Positions 17,631 to 64,000 of a stretch of 64,000 bases of DNA are shown here, in pieces. Made by a program: the position numbers and the translations under genes. Below the pieces are notes generated by a model, which saw only the letters and a list, made by a program, of their open reading frames with translations, was not told the DNA's origin and searched no databases. Source of the DNA: a virus; the IMG/VR virus record IMGVR_UViG_3300004369_000006, positions 19,288 through 83,287 of that record, one strand, 5' to 3'. Numbering within the stretch: position 1 is the first letter of the stretch; every line of letters begins with the position of its first letter.

Positions 17631-18089
17631 TTATAGTTCACCAACGTTTTGATAGGAATAATAGCCTTCATGACTAATGATAAGATGGTCTATAAGCTGA
17701 AAATCTAGTAGTTTACTAGCCTCTTTCATTTTCTGTGTCATCTTATCATCTTGCTTACTAGGCTTTAATAATCCGCTAGGGTGGTTGTGTATTAAAATAA
17801 ATGCTGCTGAGTTGGCTAAGTTAAACAATATCTTAAATACTACCGTAGGGTCTATTAAAGTTCCTGTGGTACCACCTATACTTACTACGTGATAACCCAG
17901 TACTTCATTACCTCTATTTAAGGCAAGCATAACCATACGCTCTCTTAACTGCATGTCTTGGAATACATTGTCCCATAAATGTTTAGCAAGATTATAAACG
18001 TCATCGGGGCATGTAATCTTATAATTTGTTTTTGCTTTATATCCGACCTTTACTTTGATCTCGGATATATTAGAGATTTCATCAATCAT
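17631..18089 (-). CDS. radC: RadC-like JAB domain protein
   Basis: E...LNRGN...GGTTGTLID...HNHPSG...PSKQD...DHLII. Start moved to the ATG at 18089 because a terminator lies inside the longer track ORF. Confidence 0.9.
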   Translation of the reverse strand: MIDEISNISEIKVKVGYKAKTNYKITCPDDVYNLAKHLWDNVFQDMQLRERMVMLALNRGNEVLGYHVVSIGGTTGTLIDPTVVFKILFNLANSAAFILIHNHPSGLLKPSKQDDKMTQKMKEASKLLDFQLIDHLIISHEGYYSYQNVGEL

Positions 18090-18105
18090 AATATATATAA
18101 TAATT

Positions 18106-18136
18106 AAAAAGGGCAGCCCCATTGCTAGACTGCCCT
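18106..18136 (-). terminator. Intrinsic terminator after dUTPase
   Basis: AAAAAGGGCAG...CTGCCCT hairpin with a U-tract on the minus strand. Confidence 0.7.
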
Positions 18137-18176
18137 CTACATAACCAATCAAAACACAAACATGAAAGATGCAATG

Positions 18177-19259: not shown

Positions 19260-19653
19260 CTTCTTTGGGTTTAGATTGTTTGTTTTTAGCTACAAGGGTA
19301 GCACGAATTTCAAGTACACGTTGAAAGAGTCTTTTCTCTATCTGTGTCATTTGAAACTTACTAATGCCAATGTCCTTAGCCATGTCTTTAATTAGCACAC
19401 TAGGTAGTGTAGCTGCAGACATGATAAGAGGCATTTCTTCTACGGTATACTCTCTATCTTGTGTAAAGTCTAGTAAGTATGCCCAAGCATTAATTACTTC
19501 GTTTAGAGGTGCTCCTCCATTGCTTTTAATAAAACTTTGTCCTTTTCGTGTAGCTAATACGAAATAGTAATCTTCAGAACCAATCTCAACAGAGTTGATT
19601 CCATCATTGAGCTTCTCAATTAGTTCGAGAAACTCCTCGTTATTTTCTGACAT
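19243..19653 (-). CDS. Hypothetical protein
   Basis: 136-aa operonic ORF. Confidence 0.6.
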   Translation of the reverse strand: MSENNEEFLELIEKLNDGINSVEIGSEDYYFVLATRKGQSFIKSNGGAPLNEVINAWAYLLDFTQDREYTVEEMPLIMSAATLPSVLIKDMAKDIGISKFQMTQIEKRLFQRVLEIRATLVAKNKQSKPKEDDQDS

Positions 19654-44075: not shown

Positions 44076-47000
44076 ATGCCTACAAAGAAGTATTCACAGT
44101 TTACCGCCATAACACTGAATGAAATCGACAGCAATAAGTTGGTTACATTCGGTGATCCAGTAGCGGTAGATAATTACTATATTCCTTATCCTGAGTTATT
44201 CCCACAAGGAAATACTGCAGGAGGCGGTACTTCTTTGTTGGAAAGTGTAGTAAAAACTACGCTTACATTTAAAAGCCTTACAGAGGGTTTAGGCATTGAC
44301 ATTAACGAGAACGTAGCAGGAGAGGTAGAAATAGCCGTAAACCCTGCGGAAATAAATATAAACGCATTCTCAGGTGTCTTATCCCTAGCCAATGGAGGTA
44401 CAGGTTCTTCACTTAGTGCACCAGGTGGTGCTGCATTCTTAGCATATGATCCTGTTAGTGGATTAGTAGATTGGACTTTAGTAGGTGGAGGATTAACTAT
44501 TGGAGGTGGTACAGTAAGTGCCAATGCTTATTATGCAGGTACAGGTCTTACGCTTACAGGTGGAGATACTTTTAATGTGGTATATGGAGGCTTTCCTAGT
44601 ACAGCAGTAGAGGGAGATACACAGATTATCATTAATGCAGGTACTGGATTAGCAGGTGGAGGAACTATCATCTTAGGTTTAGGTGGTAGTGTAACGCTTA
44701 CCAATAACGATACAGGGTCTGCACAGAATATATTTAAAACTGTAGTTACAGACTCAGGTTCTTTAGTAGCTACGAGTAATGTAAGTACGTTACCTATTGT
44801 TGGAGGAACTAACGTAAATACCTCGGTAGTTGGTAACCAAGTAATCATCAACGCAGAGAGCTCCTCATGCATTCCTTACAACATTGAGTACACTGCAGTA
44901 CCAGGAGCACTTCCTAGTGCAGGAGAAGCCATCTTTAATACCTCAGATGAGGTCATTAGAGTACATGCTATAGATTCAGATGGTAATAGTCACGTAAATG
45001 AGTTAGATACCAAGTTCTTATCAAGCAGAGCTTTTGGTATGTTTTGGGCTGATCAAGCTGCTCCATACTTAAACAATAGCAGTCAATACTTTGACCAGTG
45101 TCGTTTTAAAGTAGATAGTATATCATGTGCTACTGCGCCTTTAGGACAAGGAGTAAATCCTACTCAAGGAACTATTGGAGATAATGGGGGTACAGGTACG
45201 CCTTATACCATCATTTATTCAAGCACATTAAACGGACTTAAAAGCGGCGGTAGTTCTGCAACAGAAGTTGTAGTATATCTAGACCCTACTACTGCAGCTA
45301 ATGCCAAGCTTACTTACAAGCGTGAACAAGGCTTTGTATTGGATAGTTTAGGCACATCTGTTATGGCTATTGCCACAGGATATAATAATCCATCAGGCAT
45401 TACTACAGATCCTTTAGTTACTAATCCTTTTGCTATTTGGTTAGATAGTCAAATGACTACTCCTGCAGGTGCAGGTTTTTATATCCTTAAAAGCGAATAC
45501 AATAGCGCAGTACTGCCTAAGAATGCTACAGAGTATTTAGGTACTGGACAATGGAGTAACCTCTTCCCTGGTTGGGATTATGTTCCTGCTACGCCTACAG
45601 GTACATCTACACAGATATGTACTATTGTAGGATCTGTAATGTCCGCATCTAAAGTATCAAGTGGGGTATCTTTCTACTATGAAATCCCTTGGTTACCTAG
45701 TGAACAAATAGGTGGATATACACCAAGTTCTAGTACTTTATCTAGTCTATGTATTGACATGGCAGGTAAAGACTATTGTGGTACTACATCATCTGTAGTA
45801 GATTCTACCTCTGAAACAATAACGATAGTTGATTATTCATCTGCTACTAATATGTTAGCGCATGTAGATGAGAATTTAACTATCCGTATTATGACGCTTA
45901 ATACAGGAGCAGGTACTACACAAAATCTATGGGAAACTATAACATCAGATAGTGGAAGTACCACTGCAGATGATCCTAATGATACCTTAACCATTGCAGG
46001 AGGTAATTTACTTACTACTTCTATTGTAGGAGATACATTAACTATAGATCATGATAACATTGGTACTCCTTCTGTATCAGGTAACAGTTTAGATATTATT
46101 ACTTCTGTTACTACAGATAGTGTAGGACATATTACAGCATTTGGACAAACATCTGTCGGACCTTTTGACAATTACAATAATTGGCAACTAAGAGTAGATG
46201 GTGGTACTGCTGATAGCATACTTACAGGACAGACTGTAAATGTCAATGCAGGTACAAATGTAACTTTAGGATATACCTCATCTACGAATACGTTAGTAAT
46301 CAATGCTACTGATACTGATACTAATACTACGTATGATTTAGACTCAATTCAAGTTGGAGCTAATGCAGCTATTACTTTAGTTGGTTCAGATGCTACTACA
46401 GATACAGTAACTCTAGTAGCTGGTACAAATATAACTTTAACAGACGATGGGTCTGCTAATATTACTATCGATGCTGCTGATACTAATACTACATATGATT
46501 TAGCGTCAGCACAAAACGGCACAGATGTAGATGTGACTTTAACTGGTTCTGATGCAAGTGTAGACACAATAACACTTGTAGCTGGTTCAAATGTGACTTT
46601 AACAGACGATGGTTCTAATAATATCACCGTAACGACTACTGATACTACGTATTCTGCAGGCACAGGGTTATCGTTAGTAGGTACTACCTTTAACAATACA
46701 GATCCTGGTTCAGCACAGAACATCTTTAAAAATATTGAAGTAGCAACTCAGTCTACAATTATTGCAGACAGTAACAATGATACTTTAACCATTGTACAAG
46801 CAAATGGTATTAATCTTACTACTGACGCAGGTACAGATACCTTAACTATAGATTCTACTATCTATGACATTGGGGTTCCTGCAGCTACTACAACTATACG
46901 CTTATCAGGTACTGGTGGTGGAGATGATCTTAGTACATCAGACATTACACTAAGTGCAGGTACAGGTATTTCTTTAAGTCATATCTCTACTTCTGAAATA

Positions 47001-47825
47001 CAAATTAGTGCTCCAGTATTTAGATCTCTTCCTGTTCCTAAAGTAGAGCTATTAAGCTATGAGCCAGGATCAGTAATAGTAGGATCCTCTTATCCTGATG
47101 TAACTATAGAATGGTTTGATTCAGTTACTAATAGTGCTGGAGGTACATTGAGTGTAGCTAAAGCTCCTTATGTAGTTGCTATGGATATTACAGATGAGAT
47201 GATTACTCAAGGAGTTTTTGTAGAAATGGTTTATTATCGGGGTAGATATGGTGCAGGTAAAAAGAGTTATGTAGCTCCTGCTCCTTATATTAGTGGGGCA
47301 AATCCTTTAGAAACTTTATATGGAAACCTAAATACACGTTCTGGTATTCATACTACAAGTGCAGGTCCTGTTTTTGTTCCTTTAGGTATAGATAAGCCTA
47401 ATCATTATCAGGTTACAAGTCCTAGTCAAACCATTAATGTATATGAGTATCTTAATGGTATGTTTACTCTTGCGCCAGTTAAATACAGAGATACTACAGG
47501 AACTACTCAGACACAATCATGTCCAGTTCCTGTTTCAAAACAAACTACTCGCTTTGATAGACCAAGTAGTAGGTTTGCTTATGGTAGCAATTATAGTCCG
47601 CTATATATTGCTTTTAGATATATCATGCGTGATAGTGGTGCTAATGGAGGCAACGGTGCTTTCATTTCAGGACCTCTATCCCATCCAATTGCTGTAGCAG
47701 CAAAGTATCATCCTTTTGTACAGGATCCGCTTACTACAGCCACGGTAGGTTTACCTACATGTACAATTCATCCTTTGTTTAATTCAGGAGTATTAAATTG
47801 TTGGCATGTTAATAGATTACCGTGA
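44076..47825 (+). CDS. Tail fibre protein 2 (1249 aa) with distinct C-terminal globular domain
   Basis: N-terminus paralogous to fibre 1 (TTLTFKSL, LANGGTG); repeated GSAQNIFK / DTLTI / AGTGLSL modules; ends TGA TAA. Confidence 0.85.
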   Translation: MPTKKYSQFTAITLNEIDSNKLVTFGDPVAVDNYYIPYPELFPQGNTAGGGTSLLESVVKTTLTFKSLTEGLGIDINENVAGEVEIAVNPAEININAFSGVLSLANGGTGSSLSAPGGAAFLAYDPVSGLVDWTLVGGGLTIGGGTVSANAYYAGTGLTLTGGDTFNVVYGGFPSTAVEGDTQIIINAGTGLAGGGTIILGLGGSVTLTNNDTGSAQNIFKTVVTDSGSLVATSNVSTLPIVGGTNVNTSVVGNQVIINAESSSCIPYNIEYTAVPGALPSAGEAIFNTSDEVIRVHAIDSDGNSHVNELDTKFLSSRAFGMFWADQAAPYLNNSSQYFDQCRFKVDSISCATAPLGQGVNPTQGTIGDNGGTGTPYTIIYSSTLNGLKSGGSSATEVVVYLDPTTAANAKLTYKREQGFVLDSLGTSVMAIATGYNNPSGITTDPLVTNPFAIWLDSQMTTPAGAGFYILKSEYNSAVLPKNATEYLGTGQWSNLFPGWDYVPATPTGTSTQICTIVGSVMSASKVSSGVSFYYEIPWLPSEQIGGYTPSSSTLSSLCIDMAGKDYCGTTSSVVDSTSETITIVDYSSATNMLAHVDENLTIRIMTLNTGAGTTQNLWETITSDSGSTTADDPNDTLTIAGGNLLTTSIVGDTLTIDHDNIGTPSVSGNSLDIITSVTTDSVGHITAFGQTSVGPFDNYNNWQLRVDGGTADSILTGQTVNVNAGTNVTLGYTSSTNTLVINATDTDTNTTYDLDSIQVGANAAITLVGSDATTDTVTLVAGTNITLTDDGSANITIDAADTNTTYDLASAQNGTDVDVTLTGSDASVDTITLVAGSNVTLTDDGSNNITVTTTDTTYSAGTGLSLVGTTFNNTDPGSAQNIFKNIEVATQSTIIADSNNDTLTIVQANGINLTTDAGTDTLTIDSTIYDIGVPAATTTIRLSGTGGGDDLSTSDITLSAGTGISLSHISTSEIQISAPVFRSLPVPKVELLSYEPGSVIVGSSYPDVTIEWFDSVTNSAGGTLSVAKAPYVVAMDITDEMITQGVFVEMVYYRGRYGAGKKSYVAPAPYISGANPLETLYGNLNTRSGIHTTSAGPVFVPLGIDKPNHYQVTSPSQTINVYEYLNGMFTLAPVKYRDTTGTTQTQSCPVPVSKQTTRFDRPSSRFAYGSNYSPLYIAFRYIMRDSGANGGNGAFISGPLSHPIAVAAKYHPFVQDPLTTATVGLPTCTIHPLFNSGVLNCWHVNRLP
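46317..46640 (+). repeat. Tandem 162-bp (54-aa) duplication in fibre 2
   Basis: GATACTAATACTACnTATGATTTA at 46317 and 46479; DTNTTYDL...TLVAG.N.TLTDDGS.NIT occurs twice. Confidence 0.85.
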
Positions 47826-56559: not shown

Positions 56560-57527
56560 TGCATACAGGATTATACACTACATATAAGAACATCTCTGAA
56601 AGGGTTCTGCGTATCATTGACGCAGATAACTATGACGATAGTGATGCACAAGTATTTATTGCTGATGCATTGAATCTTATTGGTGTGCATCATGCTTATG
56701 AACCTAAGAAGTGCTTTATTGATATTGAGCAACACAGGGGAGAGTTACCAAAAGATATTACGTACATGATTGCAGTACGTGGTAACTCATATAAGAATGG
56801 CATTACCAGTCACACTATTGCTTCTACAGAGATTCCTCAGACCAACATTACTACTGATCTTACAGGTAATGGTAATCCTAACACAGTGTTGGGATCAGGT
56901 ACATTTGCAGGACAAACTTATTTAGATACCAACTCAGAAAATACTTATGAGTGGGATGGCAGTACTTGGATTTTCTTACAAAGTACTCGTAATCCTATGG
57001 CTTCAGGTAAAGTAGTATCTAAAGACTACATAACCAGTCTATATCCTATGCGATATAACGGGGCTAGTTTTCACTACACATACTACTGCGATACTGACCT
57101 AGTTAATAACAAGGTTCCTAGTTCATGTAATATGACCTATACCTTGGCAAGTAATCACATCTTTACCAGCTTTGATAGTGGAATTGTAGAGATTGCATAT
57201 CGTGCTATACCTGTATCTGAAAAGGGTGAGCCATTGATTCCTAATAACAGAACAGTACAACTTGCTTTAGAAGCATATGTTATTGAGCGCATTGGATACA
57301 AACTTTTAATTAGAGGTAAGATAGATGGTGGTGTTTATCAAAAGATGCAACAAGAAAGAGATTGGTACATGGGTGCAGCAACTTCAGATTTATCTACACC
57401 TTCACCTGACGAGATGGAATCTATTGCTAATGTATGGCAAAGTTTCTTTACTCATGGCAGTCATTCTACTGCTTGGGAAGGTACTGGGTCTAGTGAACAT
57501 TTAAAACCTCATCCCCCTAAATCATGA
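56559..57527 (+). CDS. Tail ring / tubular protein
   Basis: HRGELP, IFTSFDSGIVEIAYRAIPV...G.PLIP, WYMGAA...PSPDEMESIAN. Confidence 0.8.
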   Translation: MHTGLYTTYKNISERVLRIIDADNYDDSDAQVFIADALNLIGVHHAYEPKKCFIDIEQHRGELPKDITYMIAVRGNSYKNGITSHTIASTEIPQTNITTDLTGNGNPNTVLGSGTFAGQTYLDTNSENTYEWDGSTWIFLQSTRNPMASGKVVSKDYITSLYPMRYNGASFHYTYYCDTDLVNNKVPSSCNMTYTLASNHIFTSFDSGIVEIAYRAIPVSEKGEPLIPNNRTVQLALEAYVIERIGYKLLIRGKIDGGVYQKMQQERDWYMGAATSDLSTPSPDEMESIANVWQSFFTHGSHSTAWEGTGSSEHLKPHPPKS

Positions 57528-60500
57528 AGAAGATAGGATTTGGATTTAGCAAGATGGACAAGGATACGGCAGCTAATGCACGTAAGCCAGAGAATTACCA
57601 TGATGCTTTAAATATGATTAATACTGCCACTGAGGACAATGTCAACGGTGGCATAATGTCTGATAGGGGCAATACGGAATCTATTCGTATTCCTAACATT
57701 GTTAATGATCAACAAAAGCCAGGTACATTTTATACTACGTATGATACTACAGCTCCTACTTTACCTCCATCTACGTTTATCCAATCTTATCCCTACACGA
57801 ATCCGCAGTTTATTGGACTACCTATTTTGGTTGTACCTAAGATAATTGGTCAGGTAGAACACAAAGAGTTTATCTATTTAGTTACTACAGGCTCTGTAGG
57901 TACTCCTACGGGTACTAATGATGGACAGGTATGGGAGTTTAATACACAGACTAACAACTTACGTCTTGTGTACCATGGGTTTTTAAACCTAAGCTTAGAC
58001 TTTCCTATTACAGGTATACATTTTATAGAGGAAACAGAATCCAATAAGCGTCTGTACTTTATAGATCATTATAACCAATTGCAGGTTATTAATGTAGCTA
58101 ACCCTGATGTATTTAATTTACCTGCTACAGCATTTCAGATTATAGGTGAAACAATTTTGTATGCACCTGAACTAATAGGTACATCTCGAGGAGGTTTATT
58201 TCAAGCAGGTCTAGTAGCTTATGCGTATCAGTATTATAATACTAATGGTACGTTTACCAAACTAAGTCCTTTATCAGAATACATTAATATTAATGAGCAG
58301 TATAAAGGTAACGAAGAAACAGAAAAAATTGGTATATCTACTAACTTAGAAATTAATAACCTAGATGGTAATTACTCAGGTATTCGTTTATATAGAATAC
58401 ATTATATCAATCCTGATCAATCTCCATTAGTACATCTTATTGCAGAACATGAATATAATATTCCAGGTACTACTGCAAGATTTGTAGATGATGGTGCTAA
58501 CAACATTGCTTTATATTCTTTAGAAGAATTATTGTATTTATACAATAGAACTGTATTTACAGGTAGGGCAGTTACTACTAAGGATAACCATATGTTTATT
58601 GGTAATCTTAAAGAGTATCCTTACTTACCTGACTATGATGCAAGAGCATATCGATGGAATACTAATAGTATAGCACGGGTAGAAACCAGTCAAGGTAATT
58701 TTGTAAACCTTACAAGTATTAGTCAAGCTGCAGCATTAGATTCTGAGCATGACGCTATTAATCCTTCTAATTATGCAGAAGAGCGCAATAACAATGTGCA
58801 GCCAGGAGGATTTTATTTTGGTAGTCCTGACCCTTTATATCGTACTTATCATTATCAGTTTAATGGTAGTACTATTGGAGGAGAAGGTCCTAATATAAAA
58901 TATACTTTTAAAACAGAGCTATATAGACCTGCATTCTTTGGATCAATAAACGATGGATTTACACTTAATCAAAATTCATTTGCTGAAATAGGAAACTATG
59001 ACCAAAGAGGATATAAGCGTGATGAAATTTACCGTTTTGGTATTATCCTATATAACAAGTATATGCAGGCTAGTCCTGTAAACTGGATTGGAGATATTCG
59101 TTTTCCTACTACGGATGATAATAATGGAGATTTTGAATTAACTCATCAATCTTTATATAGTAGTGATCCTGTCAATTATCCTATGGATCCTGACCAGGGT
59201 AAGTTTAGAAAATTATATATTGAGTTCAGAGTAAGCAACTTACCTTCGGATTGTATTGGATATCAGATAGTACGAGTACCAAGAACCGATATAGATAAGA
59301 CTATTCCTTTCCAAGCCTTAGTACAACCTATGGTTATTGGTAATAATAGAAACTTTATTGGTAATATTCCTGCGGCAGGTATTTCACAAGTTACTACACC
59401 TTTTGATGAGTATCGTAATCTTATCCAACCTACATTATTTAATAGGGCTGTATCAGGTACGTTATTAGGTATAGTAGGTTCAAACTGGACTTATAGTTCT
59501 ACTCCAAATATATCTAATGGTTTAAATGCTCCTCAAAGTTGGTGGGCAGGGTGGCCAGTATTTGGTTTAAGTACTTCTCCTGGTCCTTTTAATAGCTCTT
59601 ATAATTTTTCTACTATTTATCCTACAGCTGATGCTGCTTCAGGAGGAACTACCCCTCAAGAAAGAGTTACTACACGACAAACAGATGCAGTAATCCAATT
59701 ATACTCTCCTGAAATAGAATTGCACAAAAGCAATACAATGACTACAAGTCCGTCATACTTAAAAACAATTGGAGGAATAGACGTGCTTAGACGGGGTACA
59801 ACAAAGTTTCAAAACAGTTATGCAGATACGTCATCTAATTTTCAAGTTGGATTTAACAATCAAGCAGGTAATGTAAATGATCCTAATACTTGGGGCATAA
59901 TTTATTATGAAGCTTCTAATAGGGTACAGACTAATAAAGACCAAGCTAAGGTTGTTCAATTATTAGATATTCCTGAGTTTACTCCTGAAAGTCAAAATGA
60001 CAATCCGTTTAATATAAATACTCCGACTAAGTATAGCTTTAACCAAAGTAATATTGAGTTCACAAATGATATTGCACATGTTTTAGTTAATGCAGCTAAC
60101 GGAGATGGAGTATGGTATGCAGATAATAATGATTGTATTACTGCAAGAGTAGGTAATCCTGTATCAGGTCTTTTAAATGAATCATTTACCAATATGATTA
60201 CTGATACCTATCAAGAGGCAGGGTTAACGGGTGGTACTACTACATACACAAGTGCTTTTGCATTAAATAATCATGCTAATACTTCTGCGTTTAATCAAAC
60301 TTATAATCCTTGGCCTATTATTGAAAGACAGAAATGGCCATTAGTAGATTATAAAATCTTTAATCGTACTAGTATTTACATAGGAAATAGTTATGAGGCA
60401 CGAAGTAATAATAACTATATCCCAGTTACGAATTTTATTCCAGCAACTACCGCTACAACTTTAGTTAAGAATGGTGATACTTTCCTATCGTTTTGGGCTT

Positions 60501-61840
60501 TAGAAAGAACAAGTGCTAAGCAAGTAGATCCATTCTTTAGGTATGGTACTATAAGGAATATTATGATGTTCCCAATAGAAACTACAATTAATATAGATGC
60601 CCGTACTGATAACTGGAGAAGTTATTTGCGTGATATAGATACTTTGTTTTCCAAAGGTCCAAAGTATAATGACATATATCAGTATGAGCCTACTAACTTT
60701 AATCATTTTCCTTTACCTCTAAACTATACTCCAAACACTAAGTTTGATTATCGTTTAGTTGCAAGTAACAGTAAGGTATATGGTGAGTACTTAGATAACT
60801 GGTCTTTGTATGAATTTAACCAAGTAATGGATTTAGATCCTGCACGTGGTCATATTAGTAACATGCATAGGCTAGGAGAGGATGTAATTGCTATTCAATC
60901 ACAAGGTATAAGCTTACTCAAGATTAATCCTGACATTACGGTATCTTCTGAACAAGGAAGTCAGATAGAACTTGCAGCAGGTAGTCTTCTTTATTCTAAT
61001 ACTTATATAGATAGAACAGCAGGTGCTAGTGCAACATTTGGTTCTGCGGAATTACCTGGCGCATTAATAATTGTAGATGACTTAAACAAAAAGATTAAGT
61101 TGTTTAGTTCAGAAGGTAACAATGTAATATCTGATGTACTTGGTATTTCTAGTTATTTACGCAAAGAAGTAAACTTTGATTTAGTACGTCTAGATAATCC
61201 TTACAAGAATACTGGAGTAGCTATTGGATATTATCCTGATAAGCAAATGGTTTATCTTACATTTAACTTATTAGATGTAACTACAAATATACGTCCACAA
61301 CCCGATAATAGCTTTACTCTTGGTTACAGCTTCTTACAGCAAGGATTTACATCTCGCTATAGCTTTACCCCACAAGCATACGTTAGTAGCTTAGGACGCA
61401 TCTATAGCATTCCTGATAATGAATCTGTATGGAAGCATGAAACAGGATTGTACGCTAACTATTACGGAGTACAGTATGAGTCTTCTATATCTTTGTTTGG
61501 TACTTCTGAAGGAATGTACAATAGCACGTGGGACACATTATCATATACTGGTCGATTAACAGACCTTAATGGTAATGATATCTACGATGAATCATTTACT
61601 TCTATCCGAGTATATAATGAGCATCAAGATACAGGAGTTGTATCCTTAGTAAACTTTACCAACCACAGACACCGTGATCGTAGATGGAATGTAGGTTTAC
61701 CAAGAGTTCAAGGTTCTCGTGCTCGCATTAGTAATCCTTGGGCTATTATGGAGCTATCATACTTAGGTGATGGCACTAAGCGTATTATTGTAGATAGCGC
61801 AAATGCTACTTATAGATTATACCCGAGTAGTTATATATAA
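57524..61840 (+). CDS. Tail muzzle / stabilisation protein
   Basis: MDKDT...YHDALN, YAYQYYN..G..T..SPLS, KDNHMFIGNL, GYKRDEIYRFGI, WIGDIRFP, GDTF, RDRRW; 1438 aa, follows the ring proteins. Confidence 0.85.
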   Translation: MKKIGFGFSKMDKDTAANARKPENYHDALNMINTATEDNVNGGIMSDRGNTESIRIPNIVNDQQKPGTFYTTYDTTAPTLPPSTFIQSYPYTNPQFIGLPILVVPKIIGQVEHKEFIYLVTTGSVGTPTGTNDGQVWEFNTQTNNLRLVYHGFLNLSLDFPITGIHFIEETESNKRLYFIDHYNQLQVINVANPDVFNLPATAFQIIGETILYAPELIGTSRGGLFQAGLVAYAYQYYNTNGTFTKLSPLSEYININEQYKGNEETEKIGISTNLEINNLDGNYSGIRLYRIHYINPDQSPLVHLIAEHEYNIPGTTARFVDDGANNIALYSLEELLYLYNRTVFTGRAVTTKDNHMFIGNLKEYPYLPDYDARAYRWNTNSIARVETSQGNFVNLTSISQAAALDSEHDAINPSNYAEERNNNVQPGGFYFGSPDPLYRTYHYQFNGSTIGGEGPNIKYTFKTELYRPAFFGSINDGFTLNQNSFAEIGNYDQRGYKRDEIYRFGIILYNKYMQASPVNWIGDIRFPTTDDNNGDFELTHQSLYSSDPVNYPMDPDQGKFRKLYIEFRVSNLPSDCIGYQIVRVPRTDIDKTIPFQALVQPMVIGNNRNFIGNIPAAGISQVTTPFDEYRNLIQPTLFNRAVSGTLLGIVGSNWTYSSTPNISNGLNAPQSWWAGWPVFGLSTSPGPFNSSYNFSTIYPTADAASGGTTPQERVTTRQTDAVIQLYSPEIELHKSNTMTTSPSYLKTIGGIDVLRRGTTKFQNSYADTSSNFQVGFNNQAGNVNDPNTWGIIYYEASNRVQTNKDQAKVVQLLDIPEFTPESQNDNPFNINTPTKYSFNQSNIEFTNDIAHVLVNAANGDGVWYADNNDCITARVGNPVSGLLNESFTNMITDTYQEAGLTGGTTTYTSAFALNNHANTSAFNQTYNPWPIIERQKWPLVDYKIFNRTSIYIGNSYEARSNNNYIPVTNFIPATTATTLVKNGDTFLSFWALERTSAKQVDPFFRYGTIRNIMMFPIETTINIDARTDNWRSYLRDIDTLFSKGPKYNDIYQYEPTNFNHFPLPLNYTPNTKFDYRLVASNSKVYGEYLDNWSLYEFNQVMDLDPARGHISNMHRLGEDVIAIQSQGISLLKINPDITVSSEQGSQIELAAGSLLYSNTYIDRTAGASATFGSAELPGALIIVDDLNKKIKLFSSEGNNVISDVLGISSYLRKEVNFDLVRLDNPYKNTGVAIGYYPDKQMVYLTFNLLDVTTNIRPQPDNSFTLGYSFLQQGFTSRYSFTPQAYVSSLGRIYSIPDNESVWKHETGLYANYYGVQYESSISLFGTSEGMYNSTWDTLSYTGRLTDLNGNDIYDESFTSIRVYNEHQDTGVVSLVNFTNHRHRDRRWNVGLPRVQGSRARISNPWAIMELSYLGDGTKRIIVDSANATYRLYPSSYI

Positions 61841-61892: not shown

Positions 61893-63737
61893 ATGAAGTC
61901 TAAGAAGCCCGTTAAAAATCGCTATAAAGGCGCACTACGTCCAGGTTCGGAAAACTATATGTACGGGGGCTATCAATATATGTATGGGGGTGAGTATAAA
62001 GATGGGGGATTATTTAAGGATATAGGAGCTGGAGCCTATGGTATATTAGAAGGAACTTTAGACACTCTTACATTTGGTGCTACAGATACTTTAACAGACG
62101 CTGGATATAGAGGTTTACAAAAACTTGGAAATAAAAATGTAGACTTAGGTAACCAAAAATCTGCAAAAGAATTAGCAGAACAAGATCGTATTCGAGGTGC
62201 AGGTGAAATTGGAGGTGCTGCATTAGGTGTTGCAGTAAATCCTGCATCATTAAAAAGTGGCGTAACTACTGCAGTAGGTGGAGCATCAGATATTATACAA
62301 GCTTCTGATGTTTCAGATAGTACTAAAAATATTGCATCAGGATTATCTAAAGCAACATCTCTTGCTACTTCATTTATGGGAGGTGCAGGTATGGCAGAAG
62401 GTTTAGCTCCGTTTGCTAAACATGCAGACCAGTTAGATACTTTTATGAATATTGGTCAAGGAGCTAATATGTTAGGGCAACTTCTTCCACAAGGACAAAG
62501 TTTATCTAATCAAGTACAGCAATCTCAACAACAATCCGTAAGTGCTGGTGGAGTAGGTCCTTATAGTAGTCAAAGATTTTATGGCGATGGTGGTAAACTA
62601 AGTAATAAGATTGGTAAGCTACGTAGAGAAGGATATCCACAAGACCAAGCAGTAGCTATTGCATATTCTATGATGGAGCGCAATGAGTTAGGTAATGGGG
62701 GATATGTAGTATCTAAATCAGATAGAAAAGGTAAGACACACAAAGTAACAGGTCCTGATGGAACTGTAAAACATTTTGGTGATCCTAACCTTAAGAATCG
62801 TCCTAACAATCCTGAAGCTAAAAAGTCTTGGTATGCTCGTCATAAAAAGAACTTAGATAATAATCCACACTTCCGTGCTTATGCTCGTGCTACATGGGCT
62901 GAAGGAGGAATGATGGATACGGATCCTAAAAATAAAAATAAAACAACATCTGATAGTACTGCAGTATCAAATACTCCTTATAGTATATTTAAATCTATGT
63001 CAGAGCATAGAAATATCGAAATACCAAAATTAGTAGGAATAGTTGAAGGAATAGGTATTGCTGAATCAGGCTTAAAAGAAGAACAAAAACAAATAGGTGG
63101 GGGGCCAGGAGCGGGAGTTGTACAAATTGAAGATGGTCCTTCTTTAAAAACTGCTCAAGGAAGAGTAAAAAATTATTACGCAGATATTTTAAAACAACCT
63201 TTAGATGATTTAGCAAATAAAATGATGTCTGTAAAAAGTGCCAAAGATTTAAGTCTTCAAGAACAGGCAGCTTTAGCAATTATAGACATGCATTATCGCA
63301 AAAATTTTTCAATAGATAATGCAATAAGAAATGATAGTTCATTAGTTGATGAGTGGGCAGTAGGATGGCAAACTACTAACGATCCTGAAAAACGTGCTAA
63401 TTTTTTTGCACGCATTAACTCTGACCGCGGTAAAGCACTAAGAGGTACTTTATATCCACAAATTATAAGTACTGCTTCTACTGCTTCTAGTCCTATTTCT
63501 TATCAAATTAAATCAGGAGATACTATGTGGGACATTAGCCAAAAGTATAATGTTCCTGTAGAGAGTATATTAAAAGTTAATCCTGAAATTAAAGATGCTG
63601 CTAGTATTAAAGCAGGACAGAATCTTATTATACCTAAAGTTAATGCTCAAGGAGGTTGGTTAAGTAAATATGAAATGGGCGGTAACATCCAAGACAATAC
63701 ATACTCTCAAGGAGGGTGGTTAAACAAATACAAATGA
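61893..63737 (+). CDS. Multi-module virion cargo protein with lysozyme-like and LysM domains, punctuated by xxxGG motifs
   Basis: LysM YQIKSGDTMWDISQKYNV...NPEI...IKAGQNLIIP; lysozyme-like IAESG...GGGPGAGVVQIE; Gly/Ala-rich membrane-like segment. Confidence 0.7.
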   Translation: MKSKKPVKNRYKGALRPGSENYMYGGYQYMYGGEYKDGGLFKDIGAGAYGILEGTLDTLTFGATDTLTDAGYRGLQKLGNKNVDLGNQKSAKELAEQDRIRGAGEIGGAALGVAVNPASLKSGVTTAVGGASDIIQASDVSDSTKNIASGLSKATSLATSFMGGAGMAEGLAPFAKHADQLDTFMNIGQGANMLGQLLPQGQSLSNQVQQSQQQSVSAGGVGPYSSQRFYGDGGKLSNKIGKLRREGYPQDQAVAIAYSMMERNELGNGGYVVSKSDRKGKTHKVTGPDGTVKHFGDPNLKNRPNNPEAKKSWYARHKKNLDNNPHFRAYARATWAEGGMMDTDPKNKNKTTSDSTAVSNTPYSIFKSMSEHRNIEIPKLVGIVEGIGIAESGLKEEQKQIGGGPGAGVVQIEDGPSLKTAQGRVKNYYADILKQPLDDLANKMMSVKSAKDLSLQEQAALAIIDMHYRKNFSIDNAIRNDSSLVDEWAVGWQTTNDPEKRANFFARINSDRGKALRGTLYPQIISTASTASSPISYQIKSGDTMWDISQKYNVPVESILKVNPEIKDAASIKAGQNLIIPKVNAQGGWLSKYEMGGNIQDNTYSQGGWLNKYK

Positions 63738-64000
63738 AAAACGAATTCTTAAAAATGGCAGGTGTCACTTCTGAAGAAGACTTCTACAAGAAGTTTCCTA
63801 CAGAGGATGCATTCTTTAATGCCTTTCCTCAAGCTCAAGAAATGGCTATGGGAGGAATGATAGATAAAAATGTTATGATGCAAGATTTATACGGTAAAGG
63901 TGGACAAATGATTAAGCGTGCTGATGGTTCTTATAGTCGTAGAGGATTATGGGATAACATCCGTGCTAATCGTGGTTCAGGTAAAAAGCCTACTAAAGAA
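63734..64000 (+). CDS. Next cargo-type protein (3'-truncated by the window; not in ORF track)
   Basis: ATGA overlap; MKNEFLKMAGVTSEEDFYKKFPTEDAFF...MAMGG...YGKGGQMIKRADGSYSRRGLWDNIRANRGSGKKPTKE; open to the window end. Confidence 0.75.
   Translation, partial: MKNEFLKMAGVTSEEDFYKKFPTEDAFFNAFPQAQEMAMGGMIDKNVMMQDLYGKGGQMIKRADGSYSRRGLWDNIRANRGSGKKPTKE

Follow-up and report, generated by a model that had tools for sequence, protein, structure and literature searches.

Two adjacent open reading frames (ORFs), ORF1 and ORF2, at the 3' end of a 64,000-nucleotide stretch of viral DNA (hereafter the window; positions 19,288 to 83,287 of IMG/VR record IMGVR_UViG_3300004369_000006) carry a recurrent short unit that ends in two glycines (GG). 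Judged by its sequence, the source genome is a complete 83-kb crAss-like phage. We propose, at roughly even odds (probability about 0.5), that the GG units form a conserved disordered hinge and joint in a beads-on-a-string cargo protein of the gp45 type, which is split over the two genes and remains uncleaved in the virion. Small, mostly helical modules of 25-80 amino acids (aa) would thus evolve independently, with larger domains such as LysM and the portal-binding CARG1 among them, and would be joined by an intrinsically disordered hinge of the form [M/Y/F/W]-x-x-G-G or [Y/M]-G-G, which commonly comes as a doublet with a spacing of 6-9 residues. Staying uncut within the particle, such hinges could allow the chain to be stored stretched out across capsid, portal channel and tail and, at ejection, to pass the tail one module after another; they could also serve as joints for module swapping between phages. 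This hinge reading is supported by the enrichment of the unit, its position at module borders, its conservation, the predicted disorder around it and the intact homologous sites in a structurally solved relative. Crassviruses belong to the most abundant phages. Their C1 cargo proteins are known, and the so-called polyvalent proteins of other phages are related in concept; in the accessible part of the literature on crassvirus cargo and phage ejection proteins, we found neither the motif nor the architecture described.

The GG unit and the genes that carry it

An earlier note on this DNA had counted 11 GG motifs across the two adjacent ORFs, and all 11 were found in place. Nine lie in ORF1, with the GG at residues 25, 32, 38, 233, 269, 338, 587, 596 and 607 (YMYGG twice, YKDGG, YGDGG at nucleotide 62580, LGNGG at 62688, WAEGG at 62895, NAQGG at 63642, YEMGG at 63669 and YSQGG at 63702), and two in ORF2 (MAMGG and YGKGG, GG at residues 46 and 62). 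The window covers bases 19288-83287 of the contig, and the remainder of ORF2, which was read from the contig start, holds 13 further GG, mostly as doublets (AMGG-EMYAQGG, AYGG-EMYANGG, GYGG-EMYAQGG, AYGG-NMYAYGG and GYGG-KMKYQTGG); ORF2 also has a Q/M-rich stretch that ends in a doublet. The unit proper reads [MYFW]-x-x-GG or [YM]-GG and often forms doublets that are spaced by 6-9 residues. The form given earlier, mostly [Y/W/M/L]-x-x-G-G, describes most of the motifs, but NAQGG and LGNGG fit it poorly.

The unit is strongly enriched in both proteins. [YWMLF]xxGG occurs 8 times in ORF1 against a mean of 1.41 in residue shuffles (1 of 20,000 shuffles reaches 8) and 10 times in full-length ORF2 against a mean of 1.29 (0 of 20,000 reach 10), and chance is therefore excluded. 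ORF3 is not enriched, with one match against 0.63 in shuffles. The genome has 68 ORFs with 100 aa or more (left of 80 once nested ORFs were dropped), and more than two motifs are found only in ORF1, ORF2 and a Gly-rich ORF of 1249 aa.

The anatomy of the unit was derived from 2,121 GG sites in 152 non-redundant proteins, taken from 303. The third position before GG is occupied by M (22%), Y (21%), F (10%) or W (5%), together 58% of sites, the second by A in 25%, and the position directly before GG by Y in 14% and M in 9%; the residue directly after GG is most often E or Y. A spacing of 6-9 residues from GG to GG was observed for 378 of 2,019 pairs, as compared to ~42 of ~1,057 in shuffles. A second preferred spacing of 25-26 residues (145 pairs vs ~16 in shuffles) corresponds to a module that we refer to as SFDNPGF. 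Furthermore, the motif GGs are selectively kept. Between ORF1 and its closest relative P0001, which are 53% identical over the alignment, 8 of 9 motif GGs are retained against 1 of 5 other GGs, and ORF2 keeps 8/10, 9/11 and 9/10 of its motif GGs with respect to P0128, P0146 and P0006; retention extends even to pairs that are only 39-53% identical.

Judged from their sequences, ORF1 and ORF2 look like a split cargo or ejection protein of the gp45/C1 type, with ORF1 as its N-terminal half, because ORF2 contains a CARG1 domain, two relatives with CARG1 (P0006 and P0155) also align to ORF1, and gp45 of ΦcrAss001 likewise starts with a Gly-rich part. The CARG1 domain (PF25725 crAss_CARG1) scores 81.1 bits against a cut-off of 27 (E 1e-22) and spans residues 180-314 of the ORF2 fragment employed for domain search and AlphaFold2 (AF2) modelling (L001:1-2025, 675 aa, read from the contig start), i.e., aa 242-376 of the full protein. 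ORF2 aligns with gp45 residues 373-551 (E 7e-21). A PDB sequence search with ORF2 returned no match; the structural relation was found by fold search, in which the only significant Foldseek match of the ORF2 model was 7qog_M, the 126-residue gp45/C1 chain of PDB 7QOG (target TM-score 0.76, root mean square deviation 3.1 Å over 122 columns, 35% identity, E 4.4e-5). Thus, the earlier description of these ORFs as cargo proteins agrees with both the CARG1 domain and the fold of ORF2. ORF1 has no significant direct similarity to gp45; its residues 80-150 align with P0213, P0006 and P0155. Both proteins are presumably present in the virion.

Like gp45, ORF2 has the CARG1 domain in the same fold and is encoded after the muzzle gene, and gp45 shares with the proteins described here the KGKFTA...ATFAQNA module as well as AYGG/AFGG motifs at the edges of its resolved segments. 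Unlike gp45, the cargo is split into two ORFs with an ATGA overlap, contains extra modules (GLWDNIRAN, two SFDNPGF repeats, KHFGDPN and LysM) and has much denser hinges that are mostly doublets. The ORFs downstream of ORF1 and ORF2 encode 793, 1926 and 2104 aa, and the order of muzzle gene, ORF1/ORF2 and giant ORFs matches the position of the cargo and virion RNA-polymerase genes of ΦcrAss001, as far as the available description of that phage goes.

The predicted models place the units in poorly ordered positions. In the ORF2 model (mean predicted local distance difference test, pLDDT, of 58), pLDDT falls below 50 exactly at four doublets (model residues 47-57, 80-95, 111-131 and 179-200), while the intervening modules are helical (block means 53-91), and CARG1 has block means of 52-92. 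The ORF1 model (mean pLDDT 47.7) is confident only at residues 235-261, 271-336 and LysM, with dips at GG 269-270 and 338-339.

A solved relative bears indirectly on whether the units are cut. In cryo-electron microscopy (cryo-EM) of the ΦcrAss001 virion, the portion of gp45 built at the portal wing comprises residues 425-552 (Bayfield et al. 2023, PMC10172136). Three GGs of this protein, in AFGG (427-428), WLNTQGG (434-435) and INEGG (447-448), align with AYGG-NMYAYGG and IDNGG of ORF2, and as all three lie within one modelled chain they appear to be uncut in the mature virion. Of two further GGs, 209-210 precedes the tail-barrel-bound helix 214-245 by four residues and 562-563 lies ten residues after 552; as judged from these sequence positions, the motifs flank ordered pieces in gp45, too. 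The authors infer a single gp45 chain that spans tail and capsid, and the portion of their article available to us contains no word for cleavage or proteolysis and does not mention the motif (PMC10172136). The units thereby pose a question for gp45 itself, namely whether it is one chain threaded from tail to capsid or is cut at its hinges.

Module borders and module exchange among relatives

With ORF1 and ORF2 as queries, hundreds of metagenomic proteins were retrieved that share only 8-20% of the query, at 60-80% identity. Coverage along the query is step-like, with ~150 of 229 proteins sharing ORF1 residues 265-340 and ~170-188 sharing ORF2 residues 62-250, and the steps coincide with GG motifs. 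Four relatives (P0088, P0125, P0074 and P0006) contain only the same small modules, reordered and each parted by an aromatic/Met-GG unit. A HMMER search with the first 240 residues of the ORF2 fragment against 1.84 billion cluster representatives identified 2,489 proteins at E <=0.001 (1,284 at E <=1e-10), which are 146-2,293 aa long and carry the match anywhere along their length.

That the motifs sit at module borders, as had been claimed in the earlier note, was checked in these relatives and holds up. Among 20,501 module-sized BLAST blocks from the 152 proteins, 73% of starts and 74% of ends fall at a GG (13-residue window; the blocks are not independent events), as compared to 20% of random positions, and the block ends peak on the second G. 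The GLWDNIRAN module gives a consistent picture over 199 distinct contexts: upstream, 179 contexts have a GG within 6 residues and 16 have the N-terminus, which leaves 4 with another border; downstream, the module is bounded by a GG in 190 contexts, by the C-terminus in 7 and by neither of them in the other 2. Coverage steps, BLAST blocks and GLWDNIRAN contexts thus agree with the proposal that these proteins are strings of unrelated small modules. Across more than 1,000 metagenomic protein clusters, small interchangeable modules are delimited by the hinge. Proteins that otherwise resist annotation can thereby be divided into units by a simple rule, which results in a catalogue of candidate injected mini-domains.

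It had also been suggested that several of the modules exist as stand-alone phage proteins, which is correct for two of them. GLWDNIRAN occurs as a complete 50-51-aa ORF without GG in nine IMG/VR loci (L062-L065, L070, L073, L074, L076 and L082), with the same start and end as the GG-delimited module; in L073 this ORF lies amid genes for replication initiation, primase/helicase, exonuclease, NinG and methyltransferase. The KLRREGYPQ...AIAYS module is found as a 46-aa protein without GG (P0383). These modules can therefore act on their own. For KHFGDPN, no stand-alone ORF below 200 aa was present among 31 distinct proteins in the examined loci, and one 78-aa, perhaps incomplete, database protein (P0362) keeps a GG at both ends.

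Several proteins depart from the common layout. L060 (9776-10180) and L066 (9653-10177) encode proteins of 134-172 aa that join a KGKFTA-type module and GLWDNIRAN via a Lys/Ser-rich linker without GG, the former 2.8 kb downstream of a large muzzle-type ORF; the hinge is therefore usual, not obligatory. L085 (9998-10525) encodes 175 aa in which GLWDNIRAN is followed by about ten Lys-rich M/Y-GG units (11 GG), which shows the hinge motif repeated to an extreme extent.

Proteins of this kind appear to be essentially restricted to viruses, judged from where the modules were retrieved. An IMG/VR scan with P0088 gave 434 relatives, 80 of which were kept, and a Crass_capsid gene is present in 24 of the 32 IMG/VR records encoding such proteins, among them all 13 records with a completeness of at least 90%. 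The same scan with ORF1 alone returned two LysM-only loci and with ORF2 alone no match. Among GenBank phages, tblastn with ORF1 gave LysM matches only, and with P0088 seven records, all uncultured crAss-like phages; hence, no cultured phage with dense motifs was found there. In Genome Taxonomy Database (GTDB) genomes, a single match was obtained, on a 4.7-kb contig. In the examined examples, the GG-rich protein lies within a block of giant ORFs; those of L016 include families of virion structural proteins and a protein of 2,048 aa that combines amidase and L-Ala-D-Glu peptidase domains. L016 (G007, 131 kb) belongs to a clade of 110-131-kb phages with similar records G005-G012, whose Crass_capsid match is only ~1e-23 and in two pieces and in which the GG-rich module protein adjoins the 2,048-aa amidase_2 and L-Ala-D-Glu peptidase protein.

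Contact, cleavage and recombination as alternatives

Several points weigh against the hinge reading. Low pLDDT is no proof of disorder, the cryo-EM argument concerns three GGs of one relative in the virion state only, and the homologue sets were retrieved with motif-containing queries, which renders the motif density among them partly circular. KHFGDPN and the GLWDNIRAN-plus-doublet segments have no match among GenBank phages by tblastn. The interchangeability of GG and protein terminus at module borders would also be expected of a cleavage site. Finally, a plain flexible linker leaves the conserved aromatic/Met residues and the favoured doublets unexplained.

The latter features suggest more than a passive linker, and a role in binding therefore stays alive as the foremost, still tentative, alternative. 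Here, the aromatic/Met-GG units would be short linear motifs that make many weak contacts with portal, tail lumen or each other, and thereby load and condense the cargo in the particle and order its release, similar to the aromatic stickers of low-complexity proteins. In addition to the aromatic/Met conservation and doublet preference, which exceed the needs of a passive linker, one gp45 doublet adopts an ordered form at the margin of the portal-bound domain, a further motif is found four residues ahead of the tail-barrel-bound helix, and the Q/M-rich stretch of ORF2 ends in a doublet. Against such contacts, the doublets outside CARG1 are modelled without structure. Moreover, other cargo (the giant RNA-polymerase ORFs and ORF3) carries 0-1 motifs, which argues against a general loading signal and thus against the capsid-loading tag that had been proposed for this DNA.

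We regard it as unlikely that the two ORFs encode polyproteins in which a protease cuts at GG, either at head maturation or after ejection by a host enzyme, to free a cocktail of mini-effectors. The adenovirus protease, the African swine fever virus (ASFV) polyprotein protease (pS273R on pp220/pp62) and ubiquitin-like proteases cut after Gly-Gly, and as in adenovirus and ASFV polyproteins and ubiquitin-like substrates, GG stands here at the border of functional units. The exact position of the motifs at module borders speaks for this possibility, as do the two modules that occur as stand-alone 46-51-aa ORFs without GG, one of them amid another phage's replication genes. Unlike GG-cut polyproteins, however, the proteins described here come without a Peptidase_C5, C48 or C39 in the phage's own complete genome, have doublets and motifs next to the termini, and have homologous sites intact in a solved virion. 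The earlier note had seen no cognate protease in the structural block, and our Pfam scan found none there; over all 59 ORFs scanned (27 + 32), it gave only two peptidase families, the cell-wall-type Peptidase_M15_3 and RadC. The RadC-like JAB domain encoded by the phage was followed as a candidate, since the classical cleavage site of JAB enzymes lies behind the GG of ubiquitin-like proteins. RadC is absent from 32 of 32 related records (0/13 among those at least 90% complete), and in the accessible part of Iyer et al. (PMC5512222), RadC-type JAB domains are argued to lack the ubiquitin-tail groove and to be likelier nucleic-acid enzymes; we therefore reject it as a general cognate GG protease. 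Among related records, MPTase-PolyVal and Peptidase_S78 were found in 0/33 and C48 and C39 in 0/32. With C5, C48 and C39 absent, these five families unmatched and the aligned gp45 GGs within a modelled chain, the idea that GG is a maturation-protease site was not borne out.

The motif itself also fits poorly with known cleavage sites. The GG proteases adenain, PLpro and C39 have a consensus of hydrophobic P4 and small P1'. In the GG units, the hydrophobic residue is instead at P5 (58%) or P3 (Y 14%, M 9%), P4 is A, K, Q or E, and Pro directly after GG is not depleted (4.7% vs 5.6% background, 0.84x). Furthermore, cuts at the 378 closely spaced pairs or at near-terminal motifs would yield peptides of 5-9 residues; many motifs lie within 15 residues of a terminus, such as the N- and C-terminal triples of ORF1 and proteins beginning with M-A-Y-G-G. 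The 78-aa KHFGDPN form with GG at both ends also argues against cutting.

A variant in which the cargo travels intact and, after its extrusion into periplasm or cytoplasm, a host or unrecognised phage enzyme cuts after aromatic-x-x-GG, freeing mini-effectors of 25-80 residues, we consider rather improbable. If it held, the freed modules would be those that other phages encode as separate early genes, and the most abundant order of gut and aquatic phages would generally take over its hosts by means of peptides delivered in the virion. A precedent for processing is given by the polyvalent proteins, which combine many unrelated domains in one polypeptide and enter the host with the DNA; cell-wall-targeting parts are common among them and some are processed by a built-in peptidase, according to the part of Iyer et al. 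2017 (PMC5512222) at hand. Polyvalent proteins carry 2-15 distinct effector domains each. The proteins described here have a string of modules and the cargo position, but in contrast to these the modules are tiny, with none in a recognised effector or enzyme family (Pfam, PHROG), MPTase is absent from the related records, and the hinge motif is conserved, whereas the word 'linker' does not occur in the accessible text of PMC5512222.

The podovirus ejection proteins are a further point of comparison. T7 gp14/15/16 and P22 gp7/16/20 are stored in the particle, leave before the DNA and pass the tail partly unfolded, and such proteins are thought to build a trans-envelope conduit (as summarised in the accessible part of PMC10172136). 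ORF1 has with LysM a domain that fits a periplasmic step, and no sequence relation of our proteins to the T7 and P22 proteins was found. In T7 and P22 ejection proteins, to our knowledge, no GG-hinged mini-module architecture is known.

Very improbable, finally, is a linker that is mainly a recombination joint, in which a short shared coding sequence aids cassette exchange and the motif has no role in the protein: extremely fluid module order between constant linkers and the cassette swapped between conserved flanks in ORF1 and P0001 would suit it, but as DNA the motif is short and degenerate, it is conserved as amino acids with varied x positions, and its GGs persist in the most divergent pairs compared above.

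Features of ORF1, ORF2 and the surrounding genome

Coordinates of the features are given in Table 1. The modules described in the earlier note fared differently upon closer inspection. LysM was confirmed by Pfam and is also matched by LysM chains in the PDB. The 'lysozyme-like' module (aa 340-535) found no Pfam family at E 5 and has block-mean pLDDT of 31-60, and the AF2 model of ORF1 is too poor here to test the claim; the central region matches phrog_3108, a family of unknown function. The Gly/Ala segment called 'membrane-like' has no hydrophobic stretch of transmembrane grade (maximum Kyte-Doolittle hydropathy 1.04). For its residues 40-229, only sub-threshold leads were obtained (Diphtheria_T, E 0.018; a viral ESM Atlas cluster with score 0.83, below 0.9, and PT-TG in 57% of members), and the structural neighbours are transporter helices with TM <0.5. 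These faint leads suggest a helical region of the membrane-insertion type. The KHFGDPN module is common to ~150 of the 229 retrieved proteins at 60-80% identity and matches PF19058 only below threshold (E 0.021). The label 'DUF5872-like' for this module and 'DUF5754' for GLWDNIRAN were considered and are wrong; PF19197 is a different module that is absent from this phage's proteins considered here.

Table 1 Features of the cargo-type gene region. Positions are those of the window; P0001 is the closest relative of ORF1, and A4 is an alignment of homologues.
Feature	Position	Strand	Remark
Muzzle protein gene	57524..61840	+	PF25731 crAss_MUZ, E 3.9e-135
ORF1, 614 aa	61893..63737	+	directly 3' of muzzle gene
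N-terminal cluster YMYGG, YMYGG, YKDGG, 6-7 residues apart	61953..62009	+	all three GG kept in P0001
Gly/Ala-rich helical region, aa 40-229	62010..62579	+	common to ~16 relatives
YGDGG hinge	62580..62594	+	GG kept in P0001
~30-aa helical module KLRREGYPQ...AIAYS	62595..62684	+	pLDDT 63-83; phrog_2423, E 1.7e-4
LGNGG hinge	62688..62702	+	G269/G270 at least 90% conserved in A4; pLDDT <50 at 262-268
KHFGDPN...YARHK module, aa 271-334	62703..62894	+	three strands plus helices, pLDDT 78-87
WAEGG hinge	62895..62909	+	G338/G339 invariant in A4; homology coverage just after falls from 149 to ~50
Central cassette of unknown fold, 'lysozyme-like' region	62910..63500	+	low-confidence model
LysM peptidoglycan-binding domain, residues 537-581	63501..63635	+	PF01476, E 3.4e-13, 49.8 bits vs cut-off 20.9
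C-terminal cluster NAQGG, YEMGG, YSQGG	63642..63734	+	ends 6 residues before stop; 93% identical to last 30 aa of P0001
ORF2 start	63716..64000	+	open at window end; runs over contig junction to 737 aa
MAMGG and YGKGG hinges	63842..63904	+	
GLWDNIRAN module	63905..64000	+	cut by window end

A comparison of ORF1 with P0001 reveals a cassette swap. The two proteins share their flanks, namely the N-terminal 356 aa at 69% identity and the last 30 aa at 93%, and between them the segment at window 62910-63635 in ORF1, consisting of the unknown cassette followed by LysM, is exchanged for residues 340-614 of P0001, where a true SLT domain comes after LysM.

ORF2 probably begins at the ATG at 63734 rather than at 63716, so that its start codon overlaps the ORF1 stop as ATGA (window 63716-63737). 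An AAGGAGG lies ~20 nt upstream of the overlap, within the codons of the last GG motif of ORF1. This arrangement, read from the nucleotide sequence, suggests that the two halves of the split gene are coupled in translation.

The record is circular, since a 99-bp overlap of the ends of the 83,287-bp contig leaves an 83,188-bp circle that is rated 100% complete. As the 99-bp terminal repeat (window 63902-64000 and contig bases 1-99) lies within ORF2, it stems from the assembly, as an overlap in a circular or permuted genome, and does not mark a physical end. A block on the + strand encodes the crass major capsid protein, ring proteins 1, 2 and 3/4, an auxiliary capsid protein and a P22-like portal (Pfam), and the replication block is on the - strand. 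The Gly-rich ORF of 1249 aa (window 44076-47825, +) contains 23 GG against 13.7 expected and 6 motif matches and is probably a fibre-like protein. The RadC-like JAB gene (PF04002, E 5e-33; window 17631-18152, -) lies within the replication block, and the same set of scanned ORFs holds DUF932, DUF6915 and the PDDEXK-like DUF3799, a gene set typical of conjugative elements. The - strand block 3922-28143 also contains an ORF with a match to spore photoproduct lyase (PF20903, E 1.1e-27), a repair enzyme that is unusual in phages.

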